In this document: positions 29,914 through 54,536 of the stretch, one piece after another
Layout: each line of letters starts with the position of its first letter
Position numbering within the stretch: the first letter of the stretch is position 1
Source of the DNA: Actinomycetota bacterium
Lineage (GTDB): Bacteria; Actinomycetota; UBA4738; HRBIN12
Direction of reading: 5' to 3'
Length of the DNA stretch: 64,000 bases
NCBI GenBank assembly: GCA_036556805.1
Contig: DATBIS010000116.1
Span: 7,862 to 71,861 of the forward strand
Translations under genes and position numbers: made by a program
Notes under the pieces: generated by a model
Seen by the model: the letters and a program-made list of their open reading frames with translations, nothing else
The model's database searches: none
What the model was told of the DNA's origin: nothing

Positions 29914-29990
29914 GGGGGTGTAGCTCAGCCCGGTAGAGCACTGCCTTCGCACGGCAGGGGTCGTCGGTTCAAATCCGATCACCTCCACCA
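29914..29990 (+). tRNA. tRNA-Ala (anticodon CGC)
   Basis: GGGGGTGTAGCTCAGCCCGGTAGAGCACTGCCTTCGCACGGCAGGGGTCGTCGGTTCAAATCCGATCACCTCCACCA. Cloverleaf with a G3:U70 pair in the acceptor stem, anticodon loop TTCGCAC, encoded CCA. Confidence 0.9.
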
Positions 29991-40487: not shown

Positions 40488-40967
40488 ATGAAGCGAGCCG
40501 CCCGGTGGGCTCGGCTCGTCGTCCTGGTGGTGTTCTCCGGAGCCCTGGCGTTCACGCCGGGGGCCTCCGCGGGTGGTGGGTGCACGATCAGCGGGACCGC
40601 GGGTCCCGACGTGCTCGTGGGTACGCCCGGTCCCGACGTGATCTGCGGGCTCAACGGTTCCGACACGATCAACGGGCGGGGCGGCGCGGACACCATTCTC
40701 GGCGGCAAAGGGAGGGACTACCTTCGCGGCCGGGGCGGTGACGACGTGCTGCGCGGCGGACGGGGCAACGACTACATCGTGAGCGGCAAGGGTACCGACG
40801 CCGTCTACGGTGGCAAGGGGAACGATCGGTGCCTGCGCACGCAGGACGGCTTCCCGCACGACACGCTTTCGGGCGGCAAGGGCAAGGACACGTACCGGGC
40901 CGACGCCGACGACGTCGTGAAGGACGCCGAGGTGCAGGTGGACGCCTGCGAGGATCCTCCCGCCTGA
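40488..40967 (+). CDS. Small secreted protein with hemolysin-type Ca-binding (RTX-like GGxGxD) repeats
   Basis: Signal peptide (MKRAARWARLVVLVVFSGALAFTPGASA), then repeats GTPGPDVICGLNGSDTINGRGGADTILGGKGRDYLRGRGGDDVLRGGRGNDYIVSGKG. Confidence 0.65.
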   Translation: MKRAARWARLVVLVVFSGALAFTPGASAGGGCTISGTAGPDVLVGTPGPDVICGLNGSDTINGRGGADTILGGKGRDYLRGRGGDDVLRGGRGNDYIVSGKGTDAVYGGKGNDRCLRTQDGFPHDTLSGGKGKDTYRADADDVVKDAEVQVDACEDPPA

Positions 40968-40980
40968 TCGCGTTCGAGGA

Positions 40981-41583
40981 TCAGGTCGGGCGCGGTCCGT
41001 TCGCGCCCGGATCGTAGGACTCCAGCCGGAAGATGCCTTCGTAGGCGACCACCACGTCGCCCGCGACCCACAGGTCCCCGGTCCAGCCGCTCTCCCTCGC
41101 GGTGAACCGCCACCGCGTCGCGTCGAACCGTCCCACGGGCGTTGCCGCGGTTTCGTCGCCGATCCGCTCGTAACGCTGCCGGGTCGGGTGGATCTCGAGC
41201 GTGAAGGGATCGACGAACAAGACGTCGATCTCGGTGGTGCCGGTGAGGCGCTTGGTCGTGACGAGGTTCGTCGCCGGCGTCAGGTAGTCGAGGTGCGTGT
41301 CGGCGTGCCAGGGGAACCGCACCGGGGCGCGGTCGCGGAAGCCGACGAGCGTCTCGCCCGACCCCTCGAGCAGCAGGTCGTGGGCTCCGGTATCGACCCG
41401 AAGCCGGACGGGTCGCCAAGCCTCGTCGACCACGACGTCGACGGTCTCGTGGTGCTCGCCGTGCTCGACCGTGTCGATCTCCGCGAAGTAGCGCCAGCCC
41501 GCGGGTCCCGGCGCGCACCGGAAGTCCTCGGTGCCGACCGGGTCCCCGTCGTCGCCGAGGACCGCGTACCTGCCGGAGGGCAT
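40981..41583 (-). CDS. Hypothetical protein, last gene of the thiolase/DUF35/ACAD operon
   Basis: 200 aa, no family recognised. Start is 2 nt downstream of the ACAD stop. Confidence 0.5.
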   Translation of the reverse strand: MPSGRYAVLGDDGDPVGTEDFRCAPGPAGWRYFAEIDTVEHGEHHETVDVVVDEAWRPVRLRVDTGAHDLLLEGSGETLVGFRDRAPVRFPWHADTHLDYLTPATNLVTTKRLTGTTEIDVLFVDPFTLEIHPTRQRYERIGDETAATPVGRFDATRWRFTARESGWTGDLWVAGDVVVAYEGIFRLESYDPGANGPRPT

Positions 41584-41585
41584 CG

Positions 41586-42743
41586 TCAGATCGACTCGGG
41601 CAGGCCGAGGTCGCGCCCGAGGATCAGGCGGTGGATCTCGCTCGTGCCCTCACCGATCTCGAGCACCTTCGCGTCTCGATAGAACCGCGCGATGGGGTAC
41701 TCCTCCATGAACCCGTAGCCACCGAAGATCTGCGCGGCCTCGCGCGCGCTCGTGACCGCCGCCTCGCTCGCGGCGAGCTTCGCGATCGAGGCCTCCGCGA
41801 CGTGCTCGCGACCCTCGTCCTTCAGCCACGCCGCGCGGTAGGTGAGGAGGCGAGCCGACTCGACGGCCACCCGCATGTCGGCGAGCTTCCCCTGGATCAG
41901 CTGGTTCGCGCCGATCGACCGGCCGAACGCCTGCCGCTCGTTCGCGTACGTCACGGATTCGTCGAGGCACGCCTGCGCGAGGCCGACCGCGAGCGCCGAG
42001 ATGGTGATGCGCGCGCCCGTGAGGATCGCGAGGCACTGCGCGAACCCGCGGCCGCGCTCGCCCAGCAGGGCGTCCGCGGGCAGCCGGACGTCCTCGAACA
42101 CCACGCCGTGGGTATCGCTCGCGTGCCAGCCGAGCTTCCGATACGGGGCCTCGATCGTGATGCCGGCGGCGTCCGCGGGGACGAGGAACGTCGACAGGCC
42201 GCGCTTCCCACCTTCCGGCTCGGTGGCGGCCGCGACGACGTGCACGCCCGAGATCGGCGTGCCGCAATTCGTGATGAAGGCCTTGGCCCCATCGAGCACC
42301 CAGCCGTCCCCGTCGGGGCGCGCGACCGTCCGCGCGGCGGCGGCGTCGGACCCGCCCCCGGGCTCGGTGAGGCAGAACGACGCGAGGATCTCGCCGGCTG
42401 CGACCCGGCGGAGCCAGCGCTCCTTTTGCTCCGGCGTCCCGAAGCGGTCGATCATCCCACCGCCCAGCCCCACCGCGGCCGAGAGCGTGATGCCCACCGA
42501 CTGGTCGACGCGTCCGAGCTCCTCGATCGCGAGGCACATCGTGACGCTGTCGGCCTCGCTGCCTCCGAACTCTTCGGGAAACGGCAGGCCGAACAGGCCG
42601 AGTTCGGCCATGCGCCGCACGACGTCGAGCGGGAACTCCTCCTTGGCGTCGCGTTCGGCGGCTCCGGGCGCGACGATCTCCTCGGCGAACTCGCGGACGA
42701 CCTTCCGGAAGTCCTCCTGCTCGGGCGTGAGGTCGAAGTTCAC
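41586..42743 (-). CDS. Acyl-CoA dehydrogenase
   Basis: Start set at the in-frame GTG (VNFDLTPEQEDF). 385 aa, ACAD N, middle and C-terminal domains (GGSDAAAARTVA, catalytic Glu region YRDAKVLEIGEGTSEI). Confidence 0.9.
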   Translation of the reverse strand: MNFDLTPEQEDFRKVVREFAEEIVAPGAAERDAKEEFPLDVVRRMAELGLFGLPFPEEFGGSEADSVTMCLAIEELGRVDQSVGITLSAAVGLGGGMIDRFGTPEQKERWLRRVAAGEILASFCLTEPGGGSDAAAARTVARPDGDGWVLDGAKAFITNCGTPISGVHVVAAATEPEGGKRGLSTFLVPADAAGITIEAPYRKLGWHASDTHGVVFEDVRLPADALLGERGRGFAQCLAILTGARITISALAVGLAQACLDESVTYANERQAFGRSIGANQLIQGKLADMRVAVESARLLTYRAAWLKDEGREHVAEASIAKLAASEAAVTSAREAAQIFGGYGFMEEYPIARFYRDAKVLEIGEGTSEIHRLILGRDLGLPESI

Positions 42744-43171
42744 GCGGGCACGAACCCCTCGAGGTCGTTGATCGATCCGGAGCGATCGTCCCGGAATGCG
42801 GCCCGCACACGCATGCCGATGGACGGCGACGCGACGCCGGCGAGGCGGTGGAGCAGCACCGTGTCGGCGCCGTCCAACTTCACGAGCGCGAGCGTGATCG
42901 GCTCCGCGAGCGCGCGATCGTCGACGTCGACGTGCCCGACCGTCCAGGACTCGATCGTGCCCTCGGGGCCGCACTCCACGTCGGACTCGAGCTCGGCGAA
43001 GTCGCGCTCGCAGAACAGGCGCGCGGGGAGGTAGGTCATCTCGCACGTCGGGCAGCGGGAGCCGAGCAGCACGCCGCGATCGCGCAGCGCCTCGAAGAAC
43101 CGGGTGTTCGCGACGCCCGGCGTGTAGCGGAAGCTCACCGGGAGACCGCCGGGGATCTTCCGAACGGTCAC
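42740..43171 (-). CDS. DUF35 Zn-ribbon/OB-fold protein (thiolase partner, ChsH2-C/BbsA-like)
   Basis: GTG start. 143 aa with a rubredoxin-like Zn ribbon (CPTCEMTYLPARLFCERDF) and an OB fold. 4-nt overlaps on both sides. Confidence 0.8.
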   Translation of the reverse strand: MTVRKIPGGLPVSFRYTPGVANTRFFEALRDRGVLLGSRCPTCEMTYLPARLFCERDFAELESDVECGPEGTIESWTVGHVDVDDRALAEPITLALVKLDGADTVLLHRLAGVASPSIGMRVRAAFRDDRSGSINDLEGFVPA

Positions 43172-44880
43172 GACGTCACCTCGCCGTCGGCGGGGCGAAA
43201 GTACGCGATGTCGAGGATGGAGCCCGTGCGTTCCTCCGCCGGGCGCCAGACGGCCTCGACGCGAAGGCCGATCCGCACGTCGTCGGGGCGAACGTCGCCG
43301 AGCTTGTGGAGGAACCCTCCCTCGCTCGCGCCGTCCAGTCGAATCACGGCCGGGAGCTCGGGTTCCTCGAGATCCTGCATGTCCCAGGTGACGTGGCAGA
43401 TCGAGAACGTCTCCACCGTGCCCGTGGCGGGAACCTCCGTCCACGAGTCGGTGGGCCGGAAGCACCGTTCGCAGAACGCCCGCGGCGGCACGAGGGTTCG
43501 CCCGCACTGCGCGCACGTGGTCGCGACGATCCTCGCGTCGCGCAGCCCGTCGAGGAACGCGCCGACGGCCGCACCGGGATCCCACGCGTACTCCGCGTCG
43601 AGGTCGATGTCGACCGCGCCGGTCGCCGACCGGAACTCGGCGTCGGAGAGCGGGGTCGCGCGCGGCGCGGACGGCGGTGTCCCGTCGCGGGTGGCCGTGG
43701 TCGCCGGACCCCCGTCCGTGCCAAGGATCACGACGGTCCCGACCTGCATGAGGTCGCCCCAGGCCTGCGCGAGGCCGCGCTCGGGCGTCCCCGGGACCTG
43801 CCTGCCCCCCGCTTCCCCGCGCAGCTGCCAGAACAGCTCGCACACCTTCATCAGCCCCGCGGCCGCGATGGGGTTCCCGACGCCGAGGAGGCCCCCGCTC
43901 GGGCAGCACGGGAGGTCGCCGTCGCGCGCCGTGACGCCGTCGCGCGCCGCCTCGGGCGCCTTGCCCTTGTCGAACAGCAGCAGCCCCTCGAGGTGGTGCA
44001 GCTCCTTGTAGTCGAATGGGTCGTAGGGCTCCGCGACGTGGATCTGCTTGCGCGGCTCGGTGACGCCCGCCATGTCGTACGCCATGCGCGCGGCGTTCTC
44101 GACGTACTCCGGGTAGACGAGGTCGCGGTTCGTCCAGTACGTCGTGTCGAGGTTCCACCCGACGCCCTGCACCCATACCGGCCGGTCAGTCAGCTGCCGC
44201 GCGACGTCCTCGCTCGCCATCACGATCGCCGCCGCGCCGTCGCTGATCGGCGAGACGTCGAGCCGCTGCACGGGCCACGCAAGCGTCTCGCTCGCGAGCA
44301 CGTCGTCCACGGTGATGTCGGACTGCCCGAGCAACGCCGAAGGATGCTCCGCCGCGTTGCGCTTGTTCTTCACCGCGACCTCGGCGATGTCGCGCTTGTC
44401 CAGCCCGTACGCGTTCATGTAGCGGTTCATCTCCAGCGCGAAGATCCACAGGAGGTTCGGCCCGAGGGGCCGCTCGATGATGTTGTCGAAGATCGTGATG
44501 AACGCGCCCTGCGGGTGCGGCTGACAGGACGACATCTTCTCCTCGGCAACGACGAGCACGACGTCGGCCTGGCCGGACGCGACCGTGTACCAGCCTTGGA
44601 TCGGAACGAAGACGCCGCTCCCGCCGCCGACGTAGGTGCGAATCATCGGCTTGCCCCAGCCACCGCTGCCGTCGGACAGGTACTCGCCCTTGCGGTGCAC
44701 GCCGTCGAACGCGTCGGGCGCGCTCGTCACGCACACGGCGTCGACGCGATCGAGCCCGATGCTCGCCGACGCGAGCGCCTCGCGCGCCGCGATCCACGCG
44801 AGTTCCTTGCCGGTCTCCTGGGCGCGGCGCACGAACTTCGTCATGCCGGCGCCCACGACGGCAACGCGACGCCCCGTCAT
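43168..44880 (-). CDS. SCP-x-type thiolase-like protein fused to a C-terminal DUF35 OB-fold domain
   Basis: 570 aa from ATG (MTGRRVAVVGAGMTKF). N-terminal about 390 aa is a thiolase-like fold. The C-terminal about 140 aa has a Zn ribbon (CAQCGRTLVPPRAFCERC) and an OB fold. Confidence 0.85.
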   Translation of the reverse strand: MTGRRVAVVGAGMTKFVRRAQETGKELAWIAAREALASASIGLDRVDAVCVTSAPDAFDGVHRKGEYLSDGSGGWGKPMIRTYVGGGSGVFVPIQGWYTVASGQADVVLVVAEEKMSSCQPHPQGAFITIFDNIIERPLGPNLLWIFALEMNRYMNAYGLDKRDIAEVAVKNKRNAAEHPSALLGQSDITVDDVLASETLAWPVQRLDVSPISDGAAAIVMASEDVARQLTDRPVWVQGVGWNLDTTYWTNRDLVYPEYVENAARMAYDMAGVTEPRKQIHVAEPYDPFDYKELHHLEGLLLFDKGKAPEAARDGVTARDGDLPCCPSGGLLGVGNPIAAAGLMKVCELFWQLRGEAGGRQVPGTPERGLAQAWGDLMQVGTVVILGTDGGPATTATRDGTPPSAPRATPLSDAEFRSATGAVDIDLDAEYAWDPGAAVGAFLDGLRDARIVATTCAQCGRTLVPPRAFCERCFRPTDSWTEVPATGTVETFSICHVTWDMQDLEEPELPAVIRLDGASEGGFLHKLGDVRPDDVRIGLRVEAVWRPAEERTGSILDIAYFRPADGEVTS

Positions 44881-45236
44881 GCGCCGGCCTCCGCGTATTC
44901 GAACAACGCAAGCGCGTTGCCGTCGGGGTCGGCGAACTCCACGAAGCGAGGCTCGCCGCGCTCTCCGCCGCCCTCGTGCCCGATCGCCACGCCGTGCGCG
45001 GCGAGCCCCGCGCGGGCCGTCTCGAGGTCGCCGACCGTGAACGCCACCGTGCCGCCCGGACGCACTTCGCCCGACGAGGCCGCATGCAGCCCGAGCTTGA
45101 TCGGCCCCGCCGCGAACTGCGCCCAGTCGTCCCCGGCCCGGTAGTCGAGCGCGAGCCCGAGCGTGTCGCGGTAGAAGGTCACGGCGCGGTCCATGTCCGC
45201 GACGAAGAGGTACACGAGGTCGGCGCGCTCGATCAC
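44877..45236 (-). CDS. VOC-family (glyoxalase/bleomycin-resistance fold) protein
   Basis: GTG start. 119 aa (LVYLFVADMDRAVTFYRDTLGL...). Confidence 0.7.
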   Translation of the reverse strand: MIERADLVYLFVADMDRAVTFYRDTLGLALDYRAGDDWAQFAAGPIKLGLHAASSGEVRPGGTVAFTVGDLETARAGLAAHGVAIGHEGGGERGEPRFVEFADPDGNALALFEYAEAGA

Positions 45237-46297
45237 GCTGCGTCTCCCGCCCGAAGCACGGCGACGGCGGACGTCGTCGAGGGCACGCCGCGCCACGACT
45301 GCGCGATCGCGACGCGCCCCTCACCCGCGCGCAGCTGCTCGACGCATGCGAGGGCCCGCGCGAGCCCCGTTCCCTCGTGCAGGTATCCCTCGCCGAGCGC
45401 GCCCCCGGAGCGGTTCACGCGATCGGGGTCCAGGCCGCCGAGCCCGAGCGCCTCGAGGTGCTGGAGCTGCTTGTACGCGAACGTGTCGTCGACCTCCGCC
45501 ACGTCGACGTCCGCGGGGGAGGCGCCGGCTTGCCGGTAGGCCTGCGCCGCCGCGCGCTCCGCCGAGCCCGCGCGATCCCAGTCCCGGCTCTCGATCGTGG
45601 GCGAGTCGCTGTTCCACCCGATCCCGTCGACCCACACGTCGGAGCCGCCGGCGACCTCGCTCGACGCGAGCACCAGCACCACGCAGCCGTCGGCCGGCGG
45701 CGCCGCCTGCTCGCGCGTGAGCGGTTCGAAGAGCGGCGTGGGGTCGGCGACGTCGGCATACGAGGCCCTTGCGTTCGAGCGGGCGTGCCCGCGATTCCGG
45801 TGAACGACCGCGAGGCAGTCGTCGACGGTCGCGCCGCTCACGTGGAGGTAGCGGCGCATCTCGAGGCCGGCGATCGCGAGCGCGGGGACGTCGAGGGGAC
45901 GGTTGAGCACCGGATCGAGGGCGAACCGGTCGATGCGGCCCTGCGTGACGACGTCCGAGGCCTTCGCGTGACCCTCGACGGCCACGCGGCGCGCGATGCC
46001 GCTGCGGATCAGCATCACGCCGGTCGCGAAGGCCTGGAGGCCCTCGCCGGCGACCGTGTGCACGGGCCTCTGGACCGCGCCGAGCTGGTCGGGGACGTAC
46101 TCGTCGAAGATCGAGGTGCCCTCCTGCACGTCCTCGGAGGCCGCGACGAACGAGTCGATCTCGGTGCGGGGATCGACGCCGGCGTCCGCGTACGCGGCGC
46201 GCGCGGCCTCGAACATCAGCTCCTTGTAGGACGTCCCGTCGGTGCTGGGGGAGAAGCCGCTCCAACCGGCTCCGACGACGGCGACTCGCGGCTCCAT
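45233..46297 (-). CDS. SCP-x-type thiolase-like protein (non-specific lipid-transfer-protein family)
   Basis: 354 aa (RVAVVGAGWSGF..., C-terminal GEGYLHEGTGLARA). First gene of the coupled operon. Confidence 0.85.
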   Translation of the reverse strand: MEPRVAVVGAGWSGFSPSTDGTSYKELMFEAARAAYADAGVDPRTEIDSFVAASEDVQEGTSIFDEYVPDQLGAVQRPVHTVAGEGLQAFATGVMLIRSGIARRVAVEGHAKASDVVTQGRIDRFALDPVLNRPLDVPALAIAGLEMRRYLHVSGATVDDCLAVVHRNRGHARSNARASYADVADPTPLFEPLTREQAAPPADGCVVLVLASSEVAGGSDVWVDGIGWNSDSPTIESRDWDRAGSAERAAAQAYRQAGASPADVDVAEVDDTFAYKQLQHLEALGLGGLDPDRVNRSGGALGEGYLHEGTGLARALACVEQLRAGEGRVAIAQSWRGVPSTTSAVAVLRAGDAA

Positions 46298-46320
46298 CCA
46301 CTCGGTTATACCGTGGATGC

Positions 46321-48237
46321 GTGAGCGACGTCCTGTGGCGCCCGACCGCGGACTACGTGGACCGCGCGAACGTCACCCGCTTCATGCGCTCCCACGCCAT
46401 CGAAACCTATGACGAGCTCGTGCGTCGCTCGGTCGCCGACGTCGGCTGGTTCTGGGACGCGGTGGTCGCGGACCTCGGGATCGAGTTCCTCGCCCCGTAC
46501 CACGAGACCGTCGACCTGAGCCGCGGACCCGAGTGGGCGCGGTGGTTCGCCGATGGGGCCCTGAACCTCGCTCACCAGTGCGTCGACCTCTGGGCGGAAC
46601 GCACGCCCGACGCGCCGGCCGTCGTCTGGGAGAGCGAAGACGGGGACGTCCGCTCCTGGACGTACGCGGAGCTCCGCGAACAGACCGACCGGCTCGCGCA
46701 CACGATCGGTGGGCTCGGCGTCGGCGAGCGCGACACCGTGGGCGTGTTCCTCCCGATGGCGCCCGAGACGGTGGCCGCGATCATGGCGTGCTCGAAGATC
46801 GGCGCGATCTGGGTGCCGATCTTCAGCGGTTTCGGGCCCGATGCCGTCGCGGCGCGCCTCGCCGACGCCGGCGCGAAGATGCTGATCACCGCCGACGGGT
46901 CGCTCCGGAAAGGCCGTGCGGTGCCGATGCGCGAGACCGCGGAACGGGCCGTCGAGATCTCCGGACTTCCGATCGAGATCCTGGTGTGGGACCGGCTCGA
47001 CGGCGGCCGGGCCTGGTCGGAGCGGCTGGCGGCGCAACCGGCGCGGTTCGACACGCTCCCCCTGGAGGCGGAGCACCCGCTGTTCATCGGCTACACGAGC
47101 GGCACGACCGGCCGCCCGAAGGGCGTGCTGCACGTGCATGGCGGGTTCCTCGTGAAGGTCGCCGAGGAGGTCGCGTACCAGGTCGACCTGCATCAGGGTG
47201 AGGTGCTCCATTGGGTCACCGACCTCGGCTGGATCATGGGCCCCTGGGAGATGGTCGGGGCGCTCGCGCTCGGCTCGACCGTCCTGTTGTTCGAGGGCGC
47301 CCCGAACCATCCCGGGCCCGATCGGTTGTGGGGGCTGGTCGAGCGGCACGGCGTCACGACGCTCGGCGTATCGCCGACGCTCGTTCGCGCGCTGATCCCT
47401 TCGGGAACCGGACCGATCCGCGACCACGACGTGTCGTCGCTCCGGATCCTCGCCTCGACCGGTGAGCCGTGGAACCCGGAGCCCTACCGATGGCTCTTCG
47501 AGGAGGTCGGGGGCGGGCGCCTGCCGATCATCAACCTGTCGGGCGGCACCGAGGTCGGCGCGTGCTTCCTCTCGCCGCTCCCGATCTGTGAGCTGAAGTC
47601 CTGCACCCTGCGCGGGCCGGCGCTCGGGATGGACGTGGACGTGTGGGGCCCCGACGGGCGTCGCGTCGCAACCGGCGACGTCGGCGAGCTCGTGTGCAGG
47701 CAGCCGTGGCCGGCGATGACGCGGGGCGTCTGGGGCGACCCGGAGCGCTACCTCGACACGTACTGGCGCCGCTGGCCGGGCGTCTGGGTGCACGGCGACT
47801 GGGCGAGCATCGACGAGGACGGGTTCTGGTTCCTGCACGGCAGGAGCGACGACACGTTGAACGTCGCCGGGAAGCGACTCGGGCCGGCCGAGGTCGAGTC
47901 CGCGCTCGCGTCGCATCCCGCGGTCGCCGAGTCGGCCGCGGTGGCCGTGCCCGACGACGTCAAGGGCGAGACGATCTGGTGCTTCGTGGTGCTGAAACCC
48001 GGCGAAACCGCGACCCCCGACGAGCTCGCAGCCGTCGTGGGCGAGCACCTCGGCCGCTCCTTCCTGCCTTCCCGCGTGCTCTTCGTCCCCGAGCTCCCGC
48101 GCACTCGGAGCGCGAAGATCCTGCGCCGTGCGGTGCGGGCGACGGCGCTCGGCGAGGATCCGGGGGATCTGTCGAGCCTCGAGAACCCTTCGGCCCTCGA
48201 CGCGATCCGGTCGATCCTCGACCAACGACCTATCTAG
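46321..48237 (+). CDS. AMP-forming acyl-CoA synthetase, Acs/PrpE-like
   Basis: 638 aa, AMP-binding motif IGYTSGTTGRPKGV and C-terminal motifs typical of acetate/propionate-CoA ligases. Confidence 0.9.
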   Translation: MSDVLWRPTADYVDRANVTRFMRSHAIETYDELVRRSVADVGWFWDAVVADLGIEFLAPYHETVDLSRGPEWARWFADGALNLAHQCVDLWAERTPDAPAVVWESEDGDVRSWTYAELREQTDRLAHTIGGLGVGERDTVGVFLPMAPETVAAIMACSKIGAIWVPIFSGFGPDAVAARLADAGAKMLITADGSLRKGRAVPMRETAERAVEISGLPIEILVWDRLDGGRAWSERLAAQPARFDTLPLEAEHPLFIGYTSGTTGRPKGVLHVHGGFLVKVAEEVAYQVDLHQGEVLHWVTDLGWIMGPWEMVGALALGSTVLLFEGAPNHPGPDRLWGLVERHGVTTLGVSPTLVRALIPSGTGPIRDHDVSSLRILASTGEPWNPEPYRWLFEEVGGGRLPIINLSGGTEVGACFLSPLPICELKSCTLRGPALGMDVDVWGPDGRRVATGDVGELVCRQPWPAMTRGVWGDPERYLDTYWRRWPGVWVHGDWASIDEDGFWFLHGRSDDTLNVAGKRLGPAEVESALASHPAVAESAAVAVPDDVKGETIWCFVVLKPGETATPDELAAVVGEHLGRSFLPSRVLFVPELPRTRSAKILRRAVRATALGEDPGDLSSLENPSALDAIRSILDQRPI

Positions 48238-49848: not shown

Positions 49849-51138
49849 ATGCTGACCCGGAAGCCGCGACAGGCGCGCAAGCCCTGCGGATGCCCCGACT
49901 ACGAGCGCGGCATCTCGCGGCGCTCGTTCCTGAAGCGCAGCGCCGTCGCCGGCGGCATGGTGGCGGGGATCGCCCACGAGGCGTTCTTCACGCGCCTCGC
50001 GTTCGCGGCCGCGCCGTACGACGGCGACGTGCTCGTGGTGGTCTCGCTGCGTGGGGGATTCGACGGGCTTTCGGCGATCGTTCCGGCGTCGGACCCCGAC
50101 TACCCGATCTGGCGCCCGAACGTCGGCATCCCCACCGGCACGCTCATCCAGCTCGACGCGACGTTCGGCATGCACCCCGCGATGTCGTCGCTCGAGCCCT
50201 TCTACACCGGCGGCTCGTTCGGGGTGGTGCACGCGGTGGGCCAGGAGTCGCCGAACCGCTCGCACTTCTCGGCGATGGACGAGCTCGAGCGCGCCGCGCC
50301 CGGCACGTCGCTCCGCACCGGGTGGCTCGATCGCGTGCTCGGTCTGCGCGACCCCGGCACCGCGTTCCAGGGCGTGCAGATGGGAAGCAACACGGCGGCC
50401 TCGATGTTCCTGGGTCCGTCGCCCGAGCTCGCGATGTGGTCGGTGGACTCGTTCGGCCTCGACGCCGCCTGGGACGACGAGGAGTCGGCGCTCTGGGATA
50501 CGGCGTTGCGTGGTCTGCACACCGGCGCGCCCGACGTCCTCGCGGCGCCGGCGACCGGCGCGCTCGACGCGCTCGCGACGACGAACGCGCTGCCCGACTA
50601 CGTCCCCGAGAACGGCGCGGTGTACGCGGACACGAACCTCGCGAGCGCGCTGAAGGACGTCGCGCGGCTGATCAAGGCCGACGTCGGGCTGCAGGTCGCG
50701 GCCGTCGACTACGGCGACTGGGACATGCACGTCGACATGGGGACGGTCGACACGGGCTGGATGCACGATCACCTCACCGAGCTGTCCGAGGCGCTCGCGG
50801 CCTTCGCGACCGACCTCGGCACGAAGCTCAACGACGTCACGCTCGTGACGCTCACGGAGTTCGGGCGACGCGTGTCCGAGAACGGGTCGGGGGGCACCGA
50901 CCACGGGTTCGGCCAGGTGGCGCTGCTGCTGGGAGGCGGCGTGGACGGCGGGAAGGTGCACGGCGCGTGGCCGGGCCTCGCCGAGGACGACCTCATCGAC
51001 GGCGACCTGAACGGCTTGAACGACTACCGCCTGATCCTCGCCGAGATCCTCGAGAAGCGCTGCCGCGCCGGATCGCTCACCGATGTGTTCCCCGGCATCT
51101 CGTCGGACCGGCTCGGGGTCGTCGTTCAGAAGCCGTAG
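49849..51138 (+). CDS. DUF1501-family protein with a Tat signal
   Basis: GAAGGAG RBS, ATG, Tat motif ISRRSFLKRSAVAGGMVAG. 429 aa with a conserved GGTDHG motif. Confidence 0.85.
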   Translation: MLTRKPRQARKPCGCPDYERGISRRSFLKRSAVAGGMVAGIAHEAFFTRLAFAAAPYDGDVLVVVSLRGGFDGLSAIVPASDPDYPIWRPNVGIPTGTLIQLDATFGMHPAMSSLEPFYTGGSFGVVHAVGQESPNRSHFSAMDELERAAPGTSLRTGWLDRVLGLRDPGTAFQGVQMGSNTAASMFLGPSPELAMWSVDSFGLDAAWDDEESALWDTALRGLHTGAPDVLAAPATGALDALATTNALPDYVPENGAVYADTNLASALKDVARLIKADVGLQVAAVDYGDWDMHVDMGTVDTGWMHDHLTELSEALAAFATDLGTKLNDVTLVTLTEFGRRVSENGSGGTDHGFGQVALLLGGGVDGGKVHGAWPGLAEDDLIDGDLNGLNDYRLILAEILEKRCRAGSLTDVFPGISSDRLGVVVQKP

Positions 51139-51169
51139 CCGCGGCTGGGCCGCGACCTATGCTCTCCCG

Positions 51170-51988
51170 ATGCGCGTCGCGGTCTGCCAGCTGAACGCGG
51201 GCGAGGACGTCGAGCGGAACCTCGCGGACGCCGAGCGGCTGTTGCACGAGGCCGCCGACGGAGGCGCCGACCTCGCCGCCCTTCCCGAGGTCTTCGGGTA
51301 CCTGGGCTCTCCGCGCAGGGTCGCCGAGCTCGCGGCCCCGCTCGACGACCATCCTGTGTGTGCCCGACTGGCAGCCGTCGCGCGTGAACGGTCGATGTGG
51401 GTCGTCGGCGGGAGCGTGTTCGAACGCGAGGGCGACAAGGTGTTCAACACGAGCCCGCTGTTCGACCGGCACGGCGAGCTCGTCGCTCGCTATCGCAAGA
51501 TCCACCTGTTCGACGTCGACCTGCCGGGGCAGCCGCCGTTCCGGGAGTCGGCGACCTACGCCGCCGGTCACGAGCTCGTCACGCACGAGACGGAGTTCGG
51601 CCGGATCGGCCTGTCGATCTGCTACGACCTGCGCTTTCCCGAGCTGTACCGAGGGCTGATGGCCCTGGGGGCGGAGGTCGTGCTGGTGCCCGCGCAGTTC
51701 CAATGGGCGACCGGAAAGGACCATTGGCACGTGCTGCTGCGCGCGCGAGCGATCGAGAACCAGTGCTTCGTGGTGGCGCCGGGGCAGTGGGGTGCGTACG
51801 GAGCACGCGAGCAGCACCGCCGCTCGTTCGGGCACTCGCTCGTCCTGGACCCGTGGGGTCGCGTGCTCGCGGAGGCGCCCGAGGAAGGAAGCGGCGTGAC
51901 GTTCGCCGACCTCGACTTCACCGAGCTGCGCGTGGTGCGGGATCGGCTTCCGTCCCTTCGCCATCGGCGGCTCGGGCTGGTCTGCTGA
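51170..51988 (+). CDS. Carbon-nitrogen hydrolase (nitrilase/omega-amidase superfamily)
   Basis: Internal ATG (MRVAVCQLNAG). Catalytic E/K/C context (PEVFGY, YRKIHLFD, GLSICYDLRFPE). Confidence 0.85.
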   Translation: MRVAVCQLNAGEDVERNLADAERLLHEAADGGADLAALPEVFGYLGSPRRVAELAAPLDDHPVCARLAAVARERSMWVVGGSVFEREGDKVFNTSPLFDRHGELVARYRKIHLFDVDLPGQPPFRESATYAAGHELVTHETEFGRIGLSICYDLRFPELYRGLMALGAEVVLVPAQFQWATGKDHWHVLLRARAIENQCFVVAPGQWGAYGAREQHRRSFGHSLVLDPWGRVLAEAPEEGSGVTFADLDFTELRVVRDRLPSLRHRRLGLVC

Positions 51989-51992
51989 CGCC

Positions 51993-52427
51993 GTGAAGCG
52001 CGCCCTGCCGAACGGCTACGAGGTCGACGACGACCGGTCGCGCGTGGACGTGGCCGCCGTGCACCGCTACCTCTCGGAGGAGGCGTACTGGGTTCCCGGC
52101 CGATCGTTCGCGACGATCGAGCGGCTCGTGGCCGAGTCGACGCGCGTGCTGGGCGCGTACGCGCCCGACGGCGTCTTGGCGGGGTTCGCCCGCGTGGTGT
52201 CGGACCGGTCGAACTTCGCCTGGCTCGGGGACGTGTTCGTGCTGCCGGAGCATCGCGGTCGAGGGCTCGGCGTCGAGCTCGTGCGGGAGGCCGTCCAGCA
52301 CGAGCCCGAGCGCGACTGCGCCTGGTACCTCAACACTCGCGACGCACACCACCTCTACGCGCGATTCGGGTTCGAGCGCGCCGACCCCGATCGAACGATG
52401 ACGCGGCCTCGCGCGACGCGCGGCTGA
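51993..52427 (+). CDS. GNAT-family N-acetyltransferase
   Basis: 144 aa with an acetyl-CoA-binding motif (LPEHRGRGLGVELV). Confidence 0.8.
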   Translation: MKRALPNGYEVDDDRSRVDVAAVHRYLSEEAYWVPGRSFATIERLVAESTRVLGAYAPDGVLAGFARVVSDRSNFAWLGDVFVLPEHRGRGLGVELVREAVQHEPERDCAWYLNTRDAHHLYARFGFERADPDRTMTRPRATRG

Positions 52428-52997
52428 TCACGCGGGCAGGTCGCCCGGCTCGTCGACGTCCGGCGGTTGCGGCTCGTCGACCTCGACGTCTTCCACCCAT
52501 TCGGGATGGCTCGCCATCAGCACGCGCGCGCCGACGTCTCCGGACAGGTGACCCGCATCCGCGTAGATCTCGCGCGACAGCAGTGCGGGACCGGGGCCGT
52601 CGCGGTAGCTCGCGCGCACGACCTGCCGGCGCGTCTCATGGAAGCGGGCGACGAGCCGCCGAATCACGTCGGGGTCGACGCCGGGCTGGTCGGCCATCAG
52701 CACGACGGCCCCCTCGCTCGCATCGTCGAGCGCGTGTAACGCGGACGCGAGCGACGTCGACTGGCCCTCGCGATAGGCAAGGTTCCGCACGAACCGTGCA
52801 TTGGTAGGAAGCGCGAGCGCCGACTCCACGGCGTCGGCTTCGTGCCCGGTCACGACAACGATCTCGTCGACCACGCCCGCGTCCCGAAGCGCGTCGATCG
52901 CGTGTTGTGCGAGCGGCTTGCCTTCGACCGTCGCGAGCTGCTTCGTGGAGCCGAACCGCGAGGACGTGCCGGCTGCCAGCACGACCCCAGAGATCAT
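52428..52997 (-). CDS. MobA-like NTP-transferase-family protein (MocA-like molybdenum-cofactor cytidylyltransferase candidate)
   Basis: Internal ATG (MISGVVLAAGTSSRFG...). 189 aa. ATGA overlap with coxG. Confidence 0.8.
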   Translation of the reverse strand: MISGVVLAAGTSSRFGSTKQLATVEGKPLAQHAIDALRDAGVVDEIVVVTGHEADAVESALALPTNARFVRNLAYREGQSTSLASALHALDDASEGAVVLMADQPGVDPDVIRRLVARFHETRRQVVRASYRDGPGPALLSREIYADAGHLSGDVGARVLMASHPEWVEDVEVDEPQPPDVDEPGDLPA

Positions 52998-53605
52998 GCC
53001 CTGCGGCCGAACAGCTTCCGGAAGAAGCTCTTGATGACCGCCCAGATCGCCGACAGGCCGAGCCCGATCCCCCCCACCGGCCTCGCGACCGGGGGAGTGG
53101 CCGGGGATTCTTCGCCGGTCGCGGCGGGTGCCGATCCGGCTTCGACGGCAGCGACGCCGGCCGCCCCCATGCTCGCCTGCAAGCAGTCGGCGAACTCCTG
53201 CGTGAGCTTCTTCGACACCTCCGGGAGCAGGCCTCGCGAGAGCTGGGCGACCGTCCCTGACAGCGTGATGTCGGCTTGCATCTTCACGGTGGTGACGCCC
53301 TCGCCGGGCTCGAGCCACGACGTGACGGTCGCGGTGGCGGCGCCCTTCCCCTTCTGCTCCATGCCCTTCGCCGAGAGCACCACGCGATGCGCGGCGTCGT
53401 CCCGTTCCCGCATCGTGACGGTGCCGGCGAACGAGAGCGAGACCGGTCCGAACTTCGCGTTCACCTTGCCCTTCCACGTCCGATCGTCGACGGTCTCGGT
53501 GAGCTCGGCGCCGGGCATGCACGGCGCCACGCGCTCGACGTCGAGGAGGTAGGCCCACAGAGCATCGACGCCCTCCGCGACGGTGAACTCGTTCTCGATG
53601 AGCAT
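52994..53605 (-). CDS. coxG: CoxG/SRPBCC-family protein (CO-dehydrogenase subunit G-like)
   Basis: Internal ATG (MLIENEFTVAEGVDALWAYLLD...). 203 aa, with a C-terminal Ala/Gly-rich tail and an amphipathic end. Confidence 0.8.
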   Translation of the reverse strand: MLIENEFTVAEGVDALWAYLLDVERVAPCMPGAELTETVDDRTWKGKVNAKFGPVSLSFAGTVTMRERDDAAHRVVLSAKGMEQKGKGAATATVTSWLEPGEGVTTVKMQADITLSGTVAQLSRGLLPEVSKKLTQEFADCLQASMGAAGVAAVEAGSAPAATGEESPATPPVARPVGGIGLGLSAIWAVIKSFFRKLFGRRA

Positions 53606-53666
53606 CGTGCCGAGCCTACCTCCGAGCTCGTGGTTGACGAAGGACGCTGCCGGGTAGCGTGACGCC

Positions 53667-54536
53667 GTGGGGTTCCGCAACAAGGTTCGGCTGGATCCGA
53701 GCCAGGTCCAGGACCGCCGTCGGTTCGGCGGCGGCACCGGCGTCGCCGTGGGCGGCGGCGCGGGCATCATCGGCCTGATCATCGTGCTCGCGATCAACCT
53801 CCTGGGCGGCGGGAACATCGACCTCAACTCGCTGCCCGACCTCAACGGGGTGATCGCCGGCGGCGGCAGCGCGTCCAGCGACACCCTCGACCAGTGCAAG
53901 ACGGGTCAGGACGCGAACACGTCCGAGGACTGCCGGATCGTGGGCTACGTCAACAGCATCCAGGCCTACTGGTCGGACGCGATCCAGGGCTACGAGCTCG
54001 CGCCCACGGTGTTCTTCAGTGGCTCGACGTCGACCGGCTGCGGCAATGCCACCTCGGCGGTCGGGCCGTTCTACTGCCCGCCGGACGCCAGCGTGTACAT
54101 CGACCTCGGCTTCTTTCAGGACCTCCAGACGAAGTTCGGAGCAGAGGGTGGCCCGTTCGCCCAGGCCTACGTGCTCGCGCACGAGTACGGCCACCACGTC
54201 CAGGACCTGCTGGGAGTCCTTGATCGCCTCCAGCCGGGTGAGGGCCCGCAGTCGGACTCGGTTCGCTCGGAGTTGCAGGCCGACTGCTACGCAGGGGTCT
54301 GGGCTGCGAACGCGGTGGACACCGGCTTCCTGACGCCGCTCACGGACGCAGATGTCGCGCAGGCGCTCGACGCGGCCGCGGCGGTGGGCGACGACCGCAT
54401 CCAGAAGGAGTTCCAAGGCCAGGTCAACCGAGAGACCTGGACGCATGGATCGTCGGCGGAACGGCAGCACTGGTTCACCGTCGGGTACAACGCCGGGCAG
54501 CCGCAGGCATGCGATACCTTCTCTGGCAAGGTATAA
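53667..54536 (+). CDS. YpfJ/KPN_02809-family neutral zinc metallopeptidase (DUF922-like)
   Basis: 289 aa, N-terminal TM, HEYGHH zinc motif. Confidence 0.85.

Follow-up and report, generated by a model that had tools for sequence, protein, structure and literature searches.

Within a 64,000-nt stretch of DNA from an Actinomycetota bacterium (GCA_036556805.1, DATBIS010000116.1, positions 7,862-71,861 of the forward strand), referred to here as the window, an operon at 40,981-46,297 encodes two thiolase-fold proteins and two DUF35 domains. Its genes are named thlB (G1), VOC (G2), the fusion thlA::DUF35a (G3), DUF35b (G4), ACAD (acyl-CoA dehydrogenase, G5) and the last gene (G6), to which is added the Acs-like ligase gene that is transcribed divergently (G7). 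Neither thiolase-fold has the catalytic cysteine, and thlB, thlA, DUF35a and DUF35b make up a four-gene module that was found in at least seven phyla, Bathyarchaeia included. We tentatively propose that this module is a Cys-independent, aldol-type C-C lyase complex for a short 3-hydroxyacyl-CoA and is not steroid-related, a function that we consider quite possible.

The active site of the thlA domain carries much of this proposal. The Pfam matches of G3 were Thiolase_N (2e-13), Thiolase_C_1 (1.3e-28), zf-ChsH2 and OB_ChsH2_C, and the thiolase-folds could be aligned over their full length to 7yvy, 7pxp, 6hsj and 6esq. In alignments of G3 to 7yvy, 4yzo and 7pxp, its nucleophile loop reads GGGSG (Gly86), versus aaCaSG in 7yvy, its HDxF loop reads Y286-D-P-F and its GHP motif reads G-N336-P. 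Residues 6-338 of G3 align to residues 8-346 of TcLtp2 (6ok1_A), and, because of the alignment offset of 8 and the constant 50-residue spacing, Y286 was equated with Ltp2 Tyr294 and N336 with Ltp2 Tyr344. The thiolase-fold retro-aldolases have Gly in place of the nucleophile, its backbone contacting the substrate hydroxyl, and use as general base a Tyr within YDHF (TcLtp2 Y294), YDCY (CtSal Y302) or YDCF (TbSLP); the Y302F substitution abolishes CtSal activity, and the general acid is Tyr344 in Ltp2 and the motif Cys in Sal (PMC12329534). G3 has this Ltp2/Sal signature, that is, Gly at the nucleophile position together with the base Tyr in YDxF/Y. Across 69 thlA homologues drawn from several phyla, conservation reaches at least 97% at EPYDPF, CPSGGLLGVGNPIAAAG, EEKMS and dozens of further polar positions, and since these motifs are so conserved across phyla the substitutions are not the product of local decay; the Gly at the nucleophile position is likewise conserved across homologues. 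In comparisons of the window with Bathyarchaeia, Syntrophomonadaceae and Symbiobacterium, thlA was the most conserved component (57-67% identity), versus 43-51% for thlB, 40% for DUF35b and 50-53% for ACAD. G3 scored 628.7 bits against the NCBIfam equivalog NF004721/PRK06065, above the cutoff of 455, which was also passed by thlA of Bathyarchaeia (681 bits) and of Syntrophomonadaceae (623 bits). Both this model and NF004722/PRK06066 are named only "thiolase domain-containing protein", with no functional name; the sequence family is already recognised.

The second thiolase-fold protein, thlB, is best read from its sequence as a catalytically dead paralogue. It matched Thiolase_C_1 (5.8e-11) and is 32% identical to the thiolase domain of G3, with the catalytic-motif positions aligned. 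Relative to 6esq and 6hsj, its Cys is replaced by Gly (VAGEG versus aaCaSG of 6esq), HDCF by DDTF and GHP by GYL, and with DDTF it also lacks the base Tyr that characterises Ltp2 and Sal. Its best NCBIfam match was NF004722/PRK06066 at 346 bits, below the cutoff of 516; the same model gave the best match for thlB of Bathyarchaeia (433) and of Syntrophomonadaceae (468), both also below that cutoff. In addition, thlB matched end to end a 353-aa "lipid-transfer protein" model, PRK07937, at 96 bits, and it has a conserved acidic motif, ED..EG.SI.DEY.PDQ.G.

These results change how the locus is to be described. An earlier note on this DNA had called both proteins SCP-x-type thiolases and had asked whether they keep the catalytic triad or are of the nucleophile-less, Ltp2-like kind. 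Since Cys, His and Cys are replaced in both, the former name does not hold for their function and the latter kind is what was found. The retro-Claisen (thiolytic) chemistry that the note had offered is excluded because the nucleophilic Cys is missing in G1 and G3. Nor are these canonical acetyl-CoA acetyltransferases with a full triad beside an artefactual fusion: the triad is lost and, as described below, the fusion is conserved. The automatic annotation of the family as acetyl-CoA C-acetyltransferase is almost certainly wrong. That label would favour a true thiolase or acyltransferase whose nucleophile has been relocated to Cys326 (CPSGG, before the GNP loop) or to another residue, and which performs Claisen-type cleavage, condensation or acyl transfer; the annotation was, however, carried over automatically from the fold. 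In homologues from different phyla Cys326 is at least 97% conserved, and where it stands two of the three aligned structures have Asn (4yzo and 6hsj, inPSGG) and the third, 7pxp, has Val (vsPrGG), but the closest sister family with a YDPF/GNP signature (P0133) has Asn at that position, and the His residues for nucleophile activation and for the oxyanion hole are gone. We regard a relocated nucleophile as quite improbable.

The distribution of the module was determined from a one-genome-per-species scan that gave 171 relatives, of which the best 80 loci (56 from Actinomycetota, 51 of them complete, and 24 from other phyla) were analysed by tblastn and open reading frame (ORF) clustering over a requested span of ±8 kb. 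The order thlB, thlA, DUF35a, DUF35b was invariant, with G1 present in 77, G3 in 80 and G4 in 75 of the 80 loci; the loci without G1 or G4 lack them because a contig end cuts these loci short of ±8 kb. The carriers outside Actinomycetota were Chloroflexota, Bacillota (among them Symbiobacterium and Syntrophomonadaceae), Terriglobia, Deltaproteobacteria, Elusimicrobia and Bathyarchaeia; those from Syntrophomonadaceae, Anaerolineae and Bathyarchaeia are anaerobic, and metagenome-assembled genomes assigned to Symbiobacterium thermophilum also carry the module. Clustering at 90% identity divided the G3 homologues that have its four Pfam domains into more than 120 groups, none less than 75% identical to G3, and the exact G3 protein was identified on two independent JGI metagenome contigs, the DNA of one of which is 99.9% identical over 8.5 kb. 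Because the gene order recurs in 80 species-representative loci and G3 itself on two independent contigs, the operon is far beyond chance. When 1.8 billion representatives were searched exhaustively with HMMER, a triple fusion and further stand-alone four-gene modules came to light.

The earlier note had considered the arrangement, a thiolase-DUF35 fusion next to a free DUF35 and a second thiolase, to be unusual. The gene-neighbourhood comparison shows it to be the fused form, in Actinomycetota, of the widespread module. thlA and DUF35a are fused in 51 of 51 complete Actinomycetota loci, which established the fusion as genuine, and are separate in 24 of 24 loci from other phyla, where the thlA frame stops after 387-396 residues and DUF35a starts a few nt to a few tens of nt downstream. 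The fusion is therefore an Actinomycetota-specific variant of an ancient four-gene module, neither an artefact nor a rarity. In another lineage, thlA, DUF35a and DUF35b form a single 731-aa protein (P0121) adjoining a thlB gene. The invariant order in the 80 loci, the fusions in 51 of 51 complete loci and the triple fusion count in favour of a physical association of the four parts, which would be in keeping with the documented roles of DUF35 as an assembly and cleft-forming subunit, or staple, in Ltp2-ChsH2, Sal-Shy, ACAT/HMGS/DUF35, PhlACB and the Sulfolobus fatty-acid synthase complex (PMC12329534, PMC6392133, PMC12960953, bioRxiv 10.1101/2024.07.05.601840).

Within G3, the linker has no invariant columns over residues 384-410 (alignment A1) and a predicted local distance difference test score (pLDDT) below 50 in the structural model. 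DUF35a matched zf-ChsH2 at residues 444-476 and OB_ChsH2_C at residues 480-546, and its C456, C459, C470 and C473 are invariant. DUF35b is 37% identical to DUF35a and the two are paralogues; the module seems to have arisen by an old duplication of a pair made up of a thiolase-like protein and a DUF35. No model covering the DUF35 subunits was found in the NCBIfam search. As the fourth metal ligand of DUF35b, 74 of 76 aligned sequences have Cys; the window and an independent metagenome contig, L001, have Asp57 instead (CxxC...CxxD), and because the codon differs at two bases, Asp57 is not a single sequencing error. Alignments of G4 with its homologues begin at residue 1, which supports the start at 43171; metagenome gene callers place it 33 nt further in.

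The accessory genes bear on the identity of the substrate. ACAD was identified inside the locus in 56 of the 80 loci (42/56 in Actinomycetota and 14/24 in others), upstream or downstream of the four-gene core, and is the only recurrent partner of the core. In the PDB ranking of G5, 7szv (412 bits) was followed by rat short-chain acyl-CoA dehydrogenase (SCAD) 1jqi (319 bits) and then by butyryl-CoA dehydrogenase (Bcd) 5ol2 and 1buc, and its best NCBIfam match was the acryloyl-CoA reductase AcrC at 389 bits, below cutoff. The IGEGTSE of G5 we take to be the retained SCAD-type catalytic Glu of the ACAD motif (Y/I)xEGT. G5 is thus a SCAD/Bcd-type enzyme that is predicted to act on short chains. 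A leucine/HMG-CoA-lyase idea (isovaleryl-CoA dehydrogenase (IVD), methylcrotonyl-CoA carboxylase and an acetoacetate-activating enzyme) was also considered, and was weakened by the SCAD-type Glu of G5 and by its ranking with SCAD/Bcd and not with IVD.

G7 scored below the cutoffs of the NCBIfam acetate-CoA ligase models (568 versus 657 for NF001208 and 565 versus 725 for TIGR02188) and gave 468 bits with the acetoacetate-CoA ligase model; its PDB matches were 8rpk (451 bits), Salmonella enterica Acs (434) and acetoacetate-CoA ligase 4wd1 (334). Trp414 of S. enterica Acs closes the acetate pocket. G7 has Gly in its place, and therefore is not acetate-specific; the further changes relative to S. 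enterica Acs are Val310 to Ile, Thr311 to Met and Val386 to Thr. The comparison implies that the acyl substrate of G7 would be larger than acetate. A divergent Acs-like ligase gene accompanies 33 of the 56 Actinomycetota loci and none of the others, and in Symbiobacterium the A and B subunits of a CoA-transferase follow ACAD, so that an acid-activating enzyme lies beside the module in two lineages.

Our proposal for the pathway, which would resemble beta-oxidation, is as follows. G7 would form the CoA ester of a short carboxylate that exceeds acetate in size (about C3-C6), the SCAD-like G5 would oxidise the acyl-CoA to a 2-enoyl-CoA, and a hydratase encoded elsewhere would give the 3-hydroxyacyl-CoA. 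Tyr286 of thlA would then abstract the beta-hydroxyl proton while the Gly86 backbone and Asn336 polarise the substrate, and the bond between C-alpha and C-beta would break, leaving the enolate of acetyl- or propionyl-CoA, which would be protonated, and freeing an aldehyde or ketone. In such a complex thlB would be a catalytically dead structural partner, each thiolase-fold subunit would be capped by the two DUF35 staples, which would also give the CoA/substrate cleft its shape, and VOC and G6 would be accessories confined to Actinomycetota; the physiological direction could be the condensing one. The step from an aldolase-type motif to an aldolase is one that we infer. Extended to all carriers, and here we are doubtful, the module might be a widespread thiolase-derived, Cys-independent aldolase of central short-chain acyl-CoA metabolism that converts, in either direction, between a small 3-hydroxyacyl-CoA on one side and acetyl- or propionyl-CoA together with a small aldehyde or ketone on the other; acetaldehyde, formaldehyde, acetone and acetoacetate would be candidates for the latter.

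The earlier note had suggested a pathway for a non-standard (branched, cyclic or steroid-like) acyl-CoA. This reading corresponds to an aldol-lyase that, in analogy to Ltp2-ChsH2 or to Ltp3/Ltp4, removes side chains or branches from a bulky acyl-CoA such as a steroid, terpenoid or alicyclic one. The fold, the DUF35 partnership and the aldolase-type Tyr are indeed common to the module and Ltp2/Sal, and according to the citation of Wilbrink 2012 in PMC10398937 the paired thiolase-like Ltp3/Ltp4 of Rhodococcus are needed for removal of the C24 branch. However, the ACAD is SCAD/Bcd-like and not of the ChsE/FadE heterotetramer type, the ligase is Acs/acetoacetate-ligase-like and not FadD19/CasG-like (144 bits with the steroid-24-oyl-CoA synthetase model, cutoff 750), the operon has no MaoC::DUF35 hydratase, and the module is present in archaea and in the anaerobic lineages named above. 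Its neighbours are housekeeping-looking in Chloroflexota (fabD, fabG, nusB, tatAC) and unrelated-looking in Actinomycetota (CN-hydrolase, GNAT, MobA, CoxG, XdhC, YceI, HxlR, aminotransferase, amidohydrolase), and no sterol catabolic genes were found among them. A branched, cyclic or steroid-like substrate is hence not borne out, and we consider a bulky-substrate lyase very improbable. The observation in the earlier note that MaoC and short-chain dehydrogenase/reductase (SDR) genes are absent from the operon, so that this is not the cholesterol side-chain route, was upheld by Pfam, which also gave no crotonase match among the operon proteins.

Several points weigh against a short-chain aldolase. 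The search for partners, comprising ORF clustering of the 80 loci, Pfam analysis of ~60 cluster representatives and a Pfam census of 106 further neighbour ORFs, identified no recurrent hydratase (neither MaoC nor enoyl-CoA hydratase recurred in the 80 neighbourhoods), 3-hydroxyacyl-CoA dehydrogenase or aldehyde dehydrogenase near the core. The four genes stand alone in several lineages (L089 is another such module and L088 a frameshift-ridden contig of the same type). The known general acids of the aldolases were not found in the G3 alignments, in which Asn336 occupies the position of Tyr344/Gln352 and Pro288 that of Cys304/His296. Because the sequence of thlA matches the archaeal-type true thiolases better (152 bits with 7yvy) than it matches Ltp2 (79 bits), its aldolase-like motif could be convergent or could serve other chemistry. 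Lastly, the AlphaFold2 model of G3, built from 57 sequences that were all at least 80% identical, was too poor (mean pLDDT 60, predicted template modelling score 0.53) for the thlA pocket to be inspected.

As regards hydration, one orthologous locus has a crotonase gene 1.5 kb downstream on the same strand together with a 3-hydroxyisobutyrate-dehydrogenase-family gene. The sister family P0133 (L083:490-6259), which has the YDPF/GNP signature and is 43% identical to G3, is clustered with a CoA-transferase, a second Cys-less thiolase-like protein (YDNY/GNP, which keeps the Tyr), a single DUF35, a crotonase and a MaoC-like gene. Both clusters point to a hydration step.

In Bathyarchaeia, Terriglobia and one Actinomycetota clade, genes for the methylmalonyl-CoA-mutase large subunit, the B12 subunit, MeaB and/or biotin carboxylase/biotin carboxyl carrier protein (BCCP) lie within 8 kb of the core, and in several lineages the module may be connected to the propionyl-CoA/methylmalonyl-CoA branch. 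These neighbours favour a decarboxylase of the (methyl)malonyl-CoA type, in which the Cys-less pocket would stabilise a thioester enolate and decarboxylate a 2-carboxy-acyl-CoA, for example methylmalonyl-CoA to propionyl-CoA, and would so link the B12 mutase/carboxylase branch to the ACAD; the AcrC match of the ACAD counts on the same side. Such genes are near the core in a minority of loci, however, and in the Actinomycetota clade they may be housekeeping neighbours. The Cys-less TbSLP, with its YDCF, decarboxylates malonyl-CoA at a kcat of 0.005 per second, but this activity is marginal, its physiological role is now doubted and CtSal has none (PMC12329534). In addition, the His and Asn that usually polarise the thioester in decarboxylating thiolase and ketosynthase folds are both changed here. 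A decarboxylase therefore appears unlikely to us.

The loss of all canonical catalytic residues in both G1 and G3 would also be expected of a non-catalytic scaffold, in which two dead thiolase-folds and their DUF35 staples would serve only to arrange or control further enzymes, be it the ACAD or a hydratase or reductase whose gene lies elsewhere, comparable to the inactive PhlA and to the inactive HMGS::DUF35 of Pseudomonas fluorescens. Inert thiolase-superfamily subunits that are needed only for assembly have precedent (PMC6392133, PMC12960953), and a DUF35 of Sulfolobus acidocaldarius recruits a ketoreductase and a MaoC dehydratase (bioRxiv 10.1101/2024.07.05.601840), but every precedent keeps one catalytic thiolase-fold subunit and here there would be none. 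Moreover, across domains of life no part of the module is as conserved as the motifs that line the thlA pocket, and the module is often alone in its operon with no client enzyme. We judge a purely structural role to be improbable.

Other thiolase-folds were observed among the loci. In Bathyarchaeia (L058:5052-6681 and L057), a thiolase of the canonical kind, which scored 477 bits with PRK06064 and thereby passed the cutoff, has a DUF35 gene of its own and lies next to the Cys-less module in divergent orientation; in L058, biotin carboxylase/BCCP and methylenetetrahydrofolate reductase genes lie upstream, and a B12-binding subunit, two methylmalonyl-CoA-mutase large subunits and MeaB downstream. 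P0145 and P0155 represent further Cys-less thiolase-like families with Tyr at the HDCF His (YVAF or YNAF) and C-S-N-P in place of GHP. From such sequences, Tyr-type remodelled thiolase folds appear to be diverse in metagenomes.

The six minus-strand genes and the divergent ligase gene were all found where the earlier note had placed them (Table 1), and the domain search (Pfam and NCBIfam) agrees with its description of a tightly packed operon of thiolase-fold, DUF35, VOC and ACAD genes. Its account of the junctions was also accurate: there are four 4-nt start/stop overlaps, GTGA at G1/G2, ATGA at G2/G3, GTGA at G3/G4 and GTGA at G4/G5, and a 2-nt gap between G5 and G6 (TGA-CG-ATG). From these overlaps, tight stoichiometric co-expression may be expected. 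The G+C content of the region is 70%, and the G+C at third codon positions (GC3) is 0.86-0.91 for the ORFs containing G1, G2, G3, G6 and G7; the ORFs carrying G4 and G5 failed the GC3/GC2 filter, and their coding status comes from Pfam matches and conserved synteny.

Table 1. Positions in the window of the operon genes, the domains of G3, the ligase gene and the divergent control region
Feature	Coordinates	Strand	Description
G1 (thlB)	45233..46297	-	Thiolase-fold paralogue without any catalytic residue; probable non-catalytic partner
G2 (VOC)	44877..45236	-	Small VOC/glyoxalase-fold protein, lineage-specific accessory; Pfam Glyoxalase 3.2e-12
G3 residues 1-388, thlA domain	43717..44880	-	Thiolase-fold, Cys-less, aldolase-type Tyr; probable catalytic subunit
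G3 residues 389-430, linker	43591..43716	-	Pro/Thr/Gly/Ala-rich, poorly conserved, created by gene fusion
G3 residues 431-570, DUF35a	43168..43590	-	Cys4 zinc ribbon and OB fold, fused to thlA
G4 (DUF35b)	42740..43171	-	Free zinc-ribbon/OB-fold protein; zf-ChsH2 and OB_ChsH2_C
G5 (ACAD)	41586..42743	-	FAD acyl-CoA dehydrogenase, SCAD/butyryl-CoA dehydrogenase-like; all three ACAD Pfam domains
G6	40981..41583	-	200 aa, last operon gene, lineage-specific accessory
G7 (Acs-like ligase)	46321..48237	+	Acs-family AMP-forming acyl-CoA ligase; ACAS_N, AMP-binding and AMP-binding_C
23-bp divergent control region	46298..46320	.	Conserved GGTATAACC / GGTTATACC box

The starts of G1 and G7 are 23 bp apart on opposite strands, and the spacer between them carries GGTTATACC (GGTATAACC on the other strand). 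In 20 related Actinomycetota loci the spacer measures 20-25 bp and has kept this box, reading GGTATAACC or GGTAGAACC; where the spacer is longer (56-106 bp), the box is represented by two -10-like boxes that stand apart, with 6-9 nt between each of them and a start codon. This pattern suggests overlapping -10 elements and leaderless divergent mRNAs at the G1/G7 spacer. A scan of the operon for sigma-70 promoters and intrinsic terminators gave none above the shuffled expectation.

Two genes of the operon are confined to Actinomycetota loci. VOC was present in 24 of the 56; the PDB sequence search with G2 gave weak FosA-like matches, and a role as methylmalonyl-CoA epimerase was discarded as no NCBIfam match to that enzyme was found at E<0.01. 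G6, present in 23 of the 56 and always directly after ACAD, had only a borderline Pfam match to Glycolipid_bind (24.8 bits versus a cutoff of 25) and no match in the PDB sequence search even at E=10.

An inverted repeat, CCTGATC...GATCAGG, spans the G6 stop, and a gene for a 159-aa RTX/HemolysinCabind-repeat protein (40488-40967, plus strand) converges on G6 with 13 bp between the stops. Beyond the Acs-like gene, at 51083-53899, are CN-hydrolase, GNAT, MobA-like NTP transferase and CoxG genes; the CN-hydrolase, GNAT, MobA-like, CoxG and XdhC homologues are syntenic in related loci, which hints at a molybdenum-hydroxylase/CO-dehydrogenase maturation cluster, for which no functional connection with the operon is apparent. 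The sole RNA gene that Rfam and ARAGORN identified in the window is a tRNA-Ala (CGC) at 29914-29990 on the plus strand.

Assemblies of thiolase-folds and DUF35 are emerging as a general design for C-C bond enzymes, with examples in archaeal mevalonate and fatty-acid synthesis, steroid aldolases, anaerobic toluene degradation and Friedel-Crafts acylases, and the module would add a form in which neither thiolase-fold subunit bears the catalytic Cys. Identity of 57-67% across phyla, as in thlA, usually marks an important and constrained enzyme. The mis-annotation of the family inflates predictions of beta-oxidation, butanoate and mevalonate pathways in metagenome reconstructions of soil Actinomycetota, Chloroflexota, Syntrophomonadaceae and Bathyarchaeia. 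Should the module prove to be an aldolase of short-chain acyl-CoA, it would offer a new biocatalyst, would supply a missing acyl-CoA step in uncultured lineages and would be a thiolase-independent route for C-C cleavage or formation; the natural fusions show which genes to co-express. The locus is more interesting than the earlier note had it on one count, as a cross-domain conserved module with remodelled active sites, and less exotic on another, in that the fusion is one lineage's variant and nothing indicates steroid-like chemistry.

The literature search returned related systems and no paper that describes two Cys-less thiolase-folds and two DUF35 combined in one module. Ltp3/Ltp4 of Rhodococcus and Mycobacterium sterol catabolism are two adjacent, different thiolase-like "lipid-transfer proteins" that have been proposed as aldol-lyases; their relation to thlA and thlB is distant, with scores far below cutoffs. 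The benzoylsuccinyl-CoA thiolase BbsAB (7pxp) and the haloarchaeal and Sulfolobus ketothiolase-DUF35 pairs resemble the module in that a thiolase-fold and a stand-alone DUF35, which in those systems form an alpha2-beta2 type assembly, are encoded side by side (bioRxiv 10.1101/2024.07.05.601840), and G3 aligns to BbsB over its full length at 125 bits (128 bits with the BbsB model NF053628, cutoff 750). Those pairs, however, are genuine Cys-dependent thiolases with a single thiolase type, neither of which applies to the module.

The archaeal ACAT/HMGS/DUF35 complex (6esq), the Friedel-Crafts acylases PhlACB and MucABC, and the P. fluorescens ACAT/HMGS::DUF35 share with the module two different thiolase-superfamily subunits and a natural thiolase-superfamily::DUF35 fusion; in these complexes DUF35 holds the subunits together, one subunit can be inert, and the subunits are insoluble or inactive alone (PMC6392133, PMC12960953). 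Their second subunit is HMGS/KAS-III-like and their ACAT keeps Cys, HDxF and GHx, whereas both thiolase-folds of the module are SCP2-thiolase-like and Cys-less and its two DUF35 are distinct (PMC12960953); no HMG_CoA_synt or ACP_syn_III match was found in the Pfam search of the operon proteins. Ltp2-ChsH2 (Thermomonospora curvata/Mycobacterium tuberculosis; 6ok1) and Sal-Shy (Comamonas testosteroni), which are retro-aldolases of steroid side chains, have, like the module, an SCP2-thiolase fold, Gly for Cys, a Tyr in YDxF/Y and a DUF35 partner, which in their case is obligate and flanks the thiolase-fold dimer, and they act on a 3-hydroxyacyl-CoA as is proposed here. The module differs from them in having Pro and not His/Cys as the third motif residue and Asn at Tyr344/Gln352, in combining two different thiolase-folds with two DUF35 where Ltp2 and Sal are homodimers with one DUF35 type, in its presence in anaerobes and archaea, and in matching 6ok1 at only 79 bits; furthermore, their DUF35 is carried by a MaoC hydratase (ChsH2/Shy) in a steroid gene context, whereas the module has neither and lies in a short-chain context. 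Judged by these sequence comparisons, the locus would work most like the Ltp2/Sal aldolase-DUF35 systems and would be built most like the assemblies of two thiolase-folds and DUF35 such as ACAT/HMGS/DUF35 and PhlACB.

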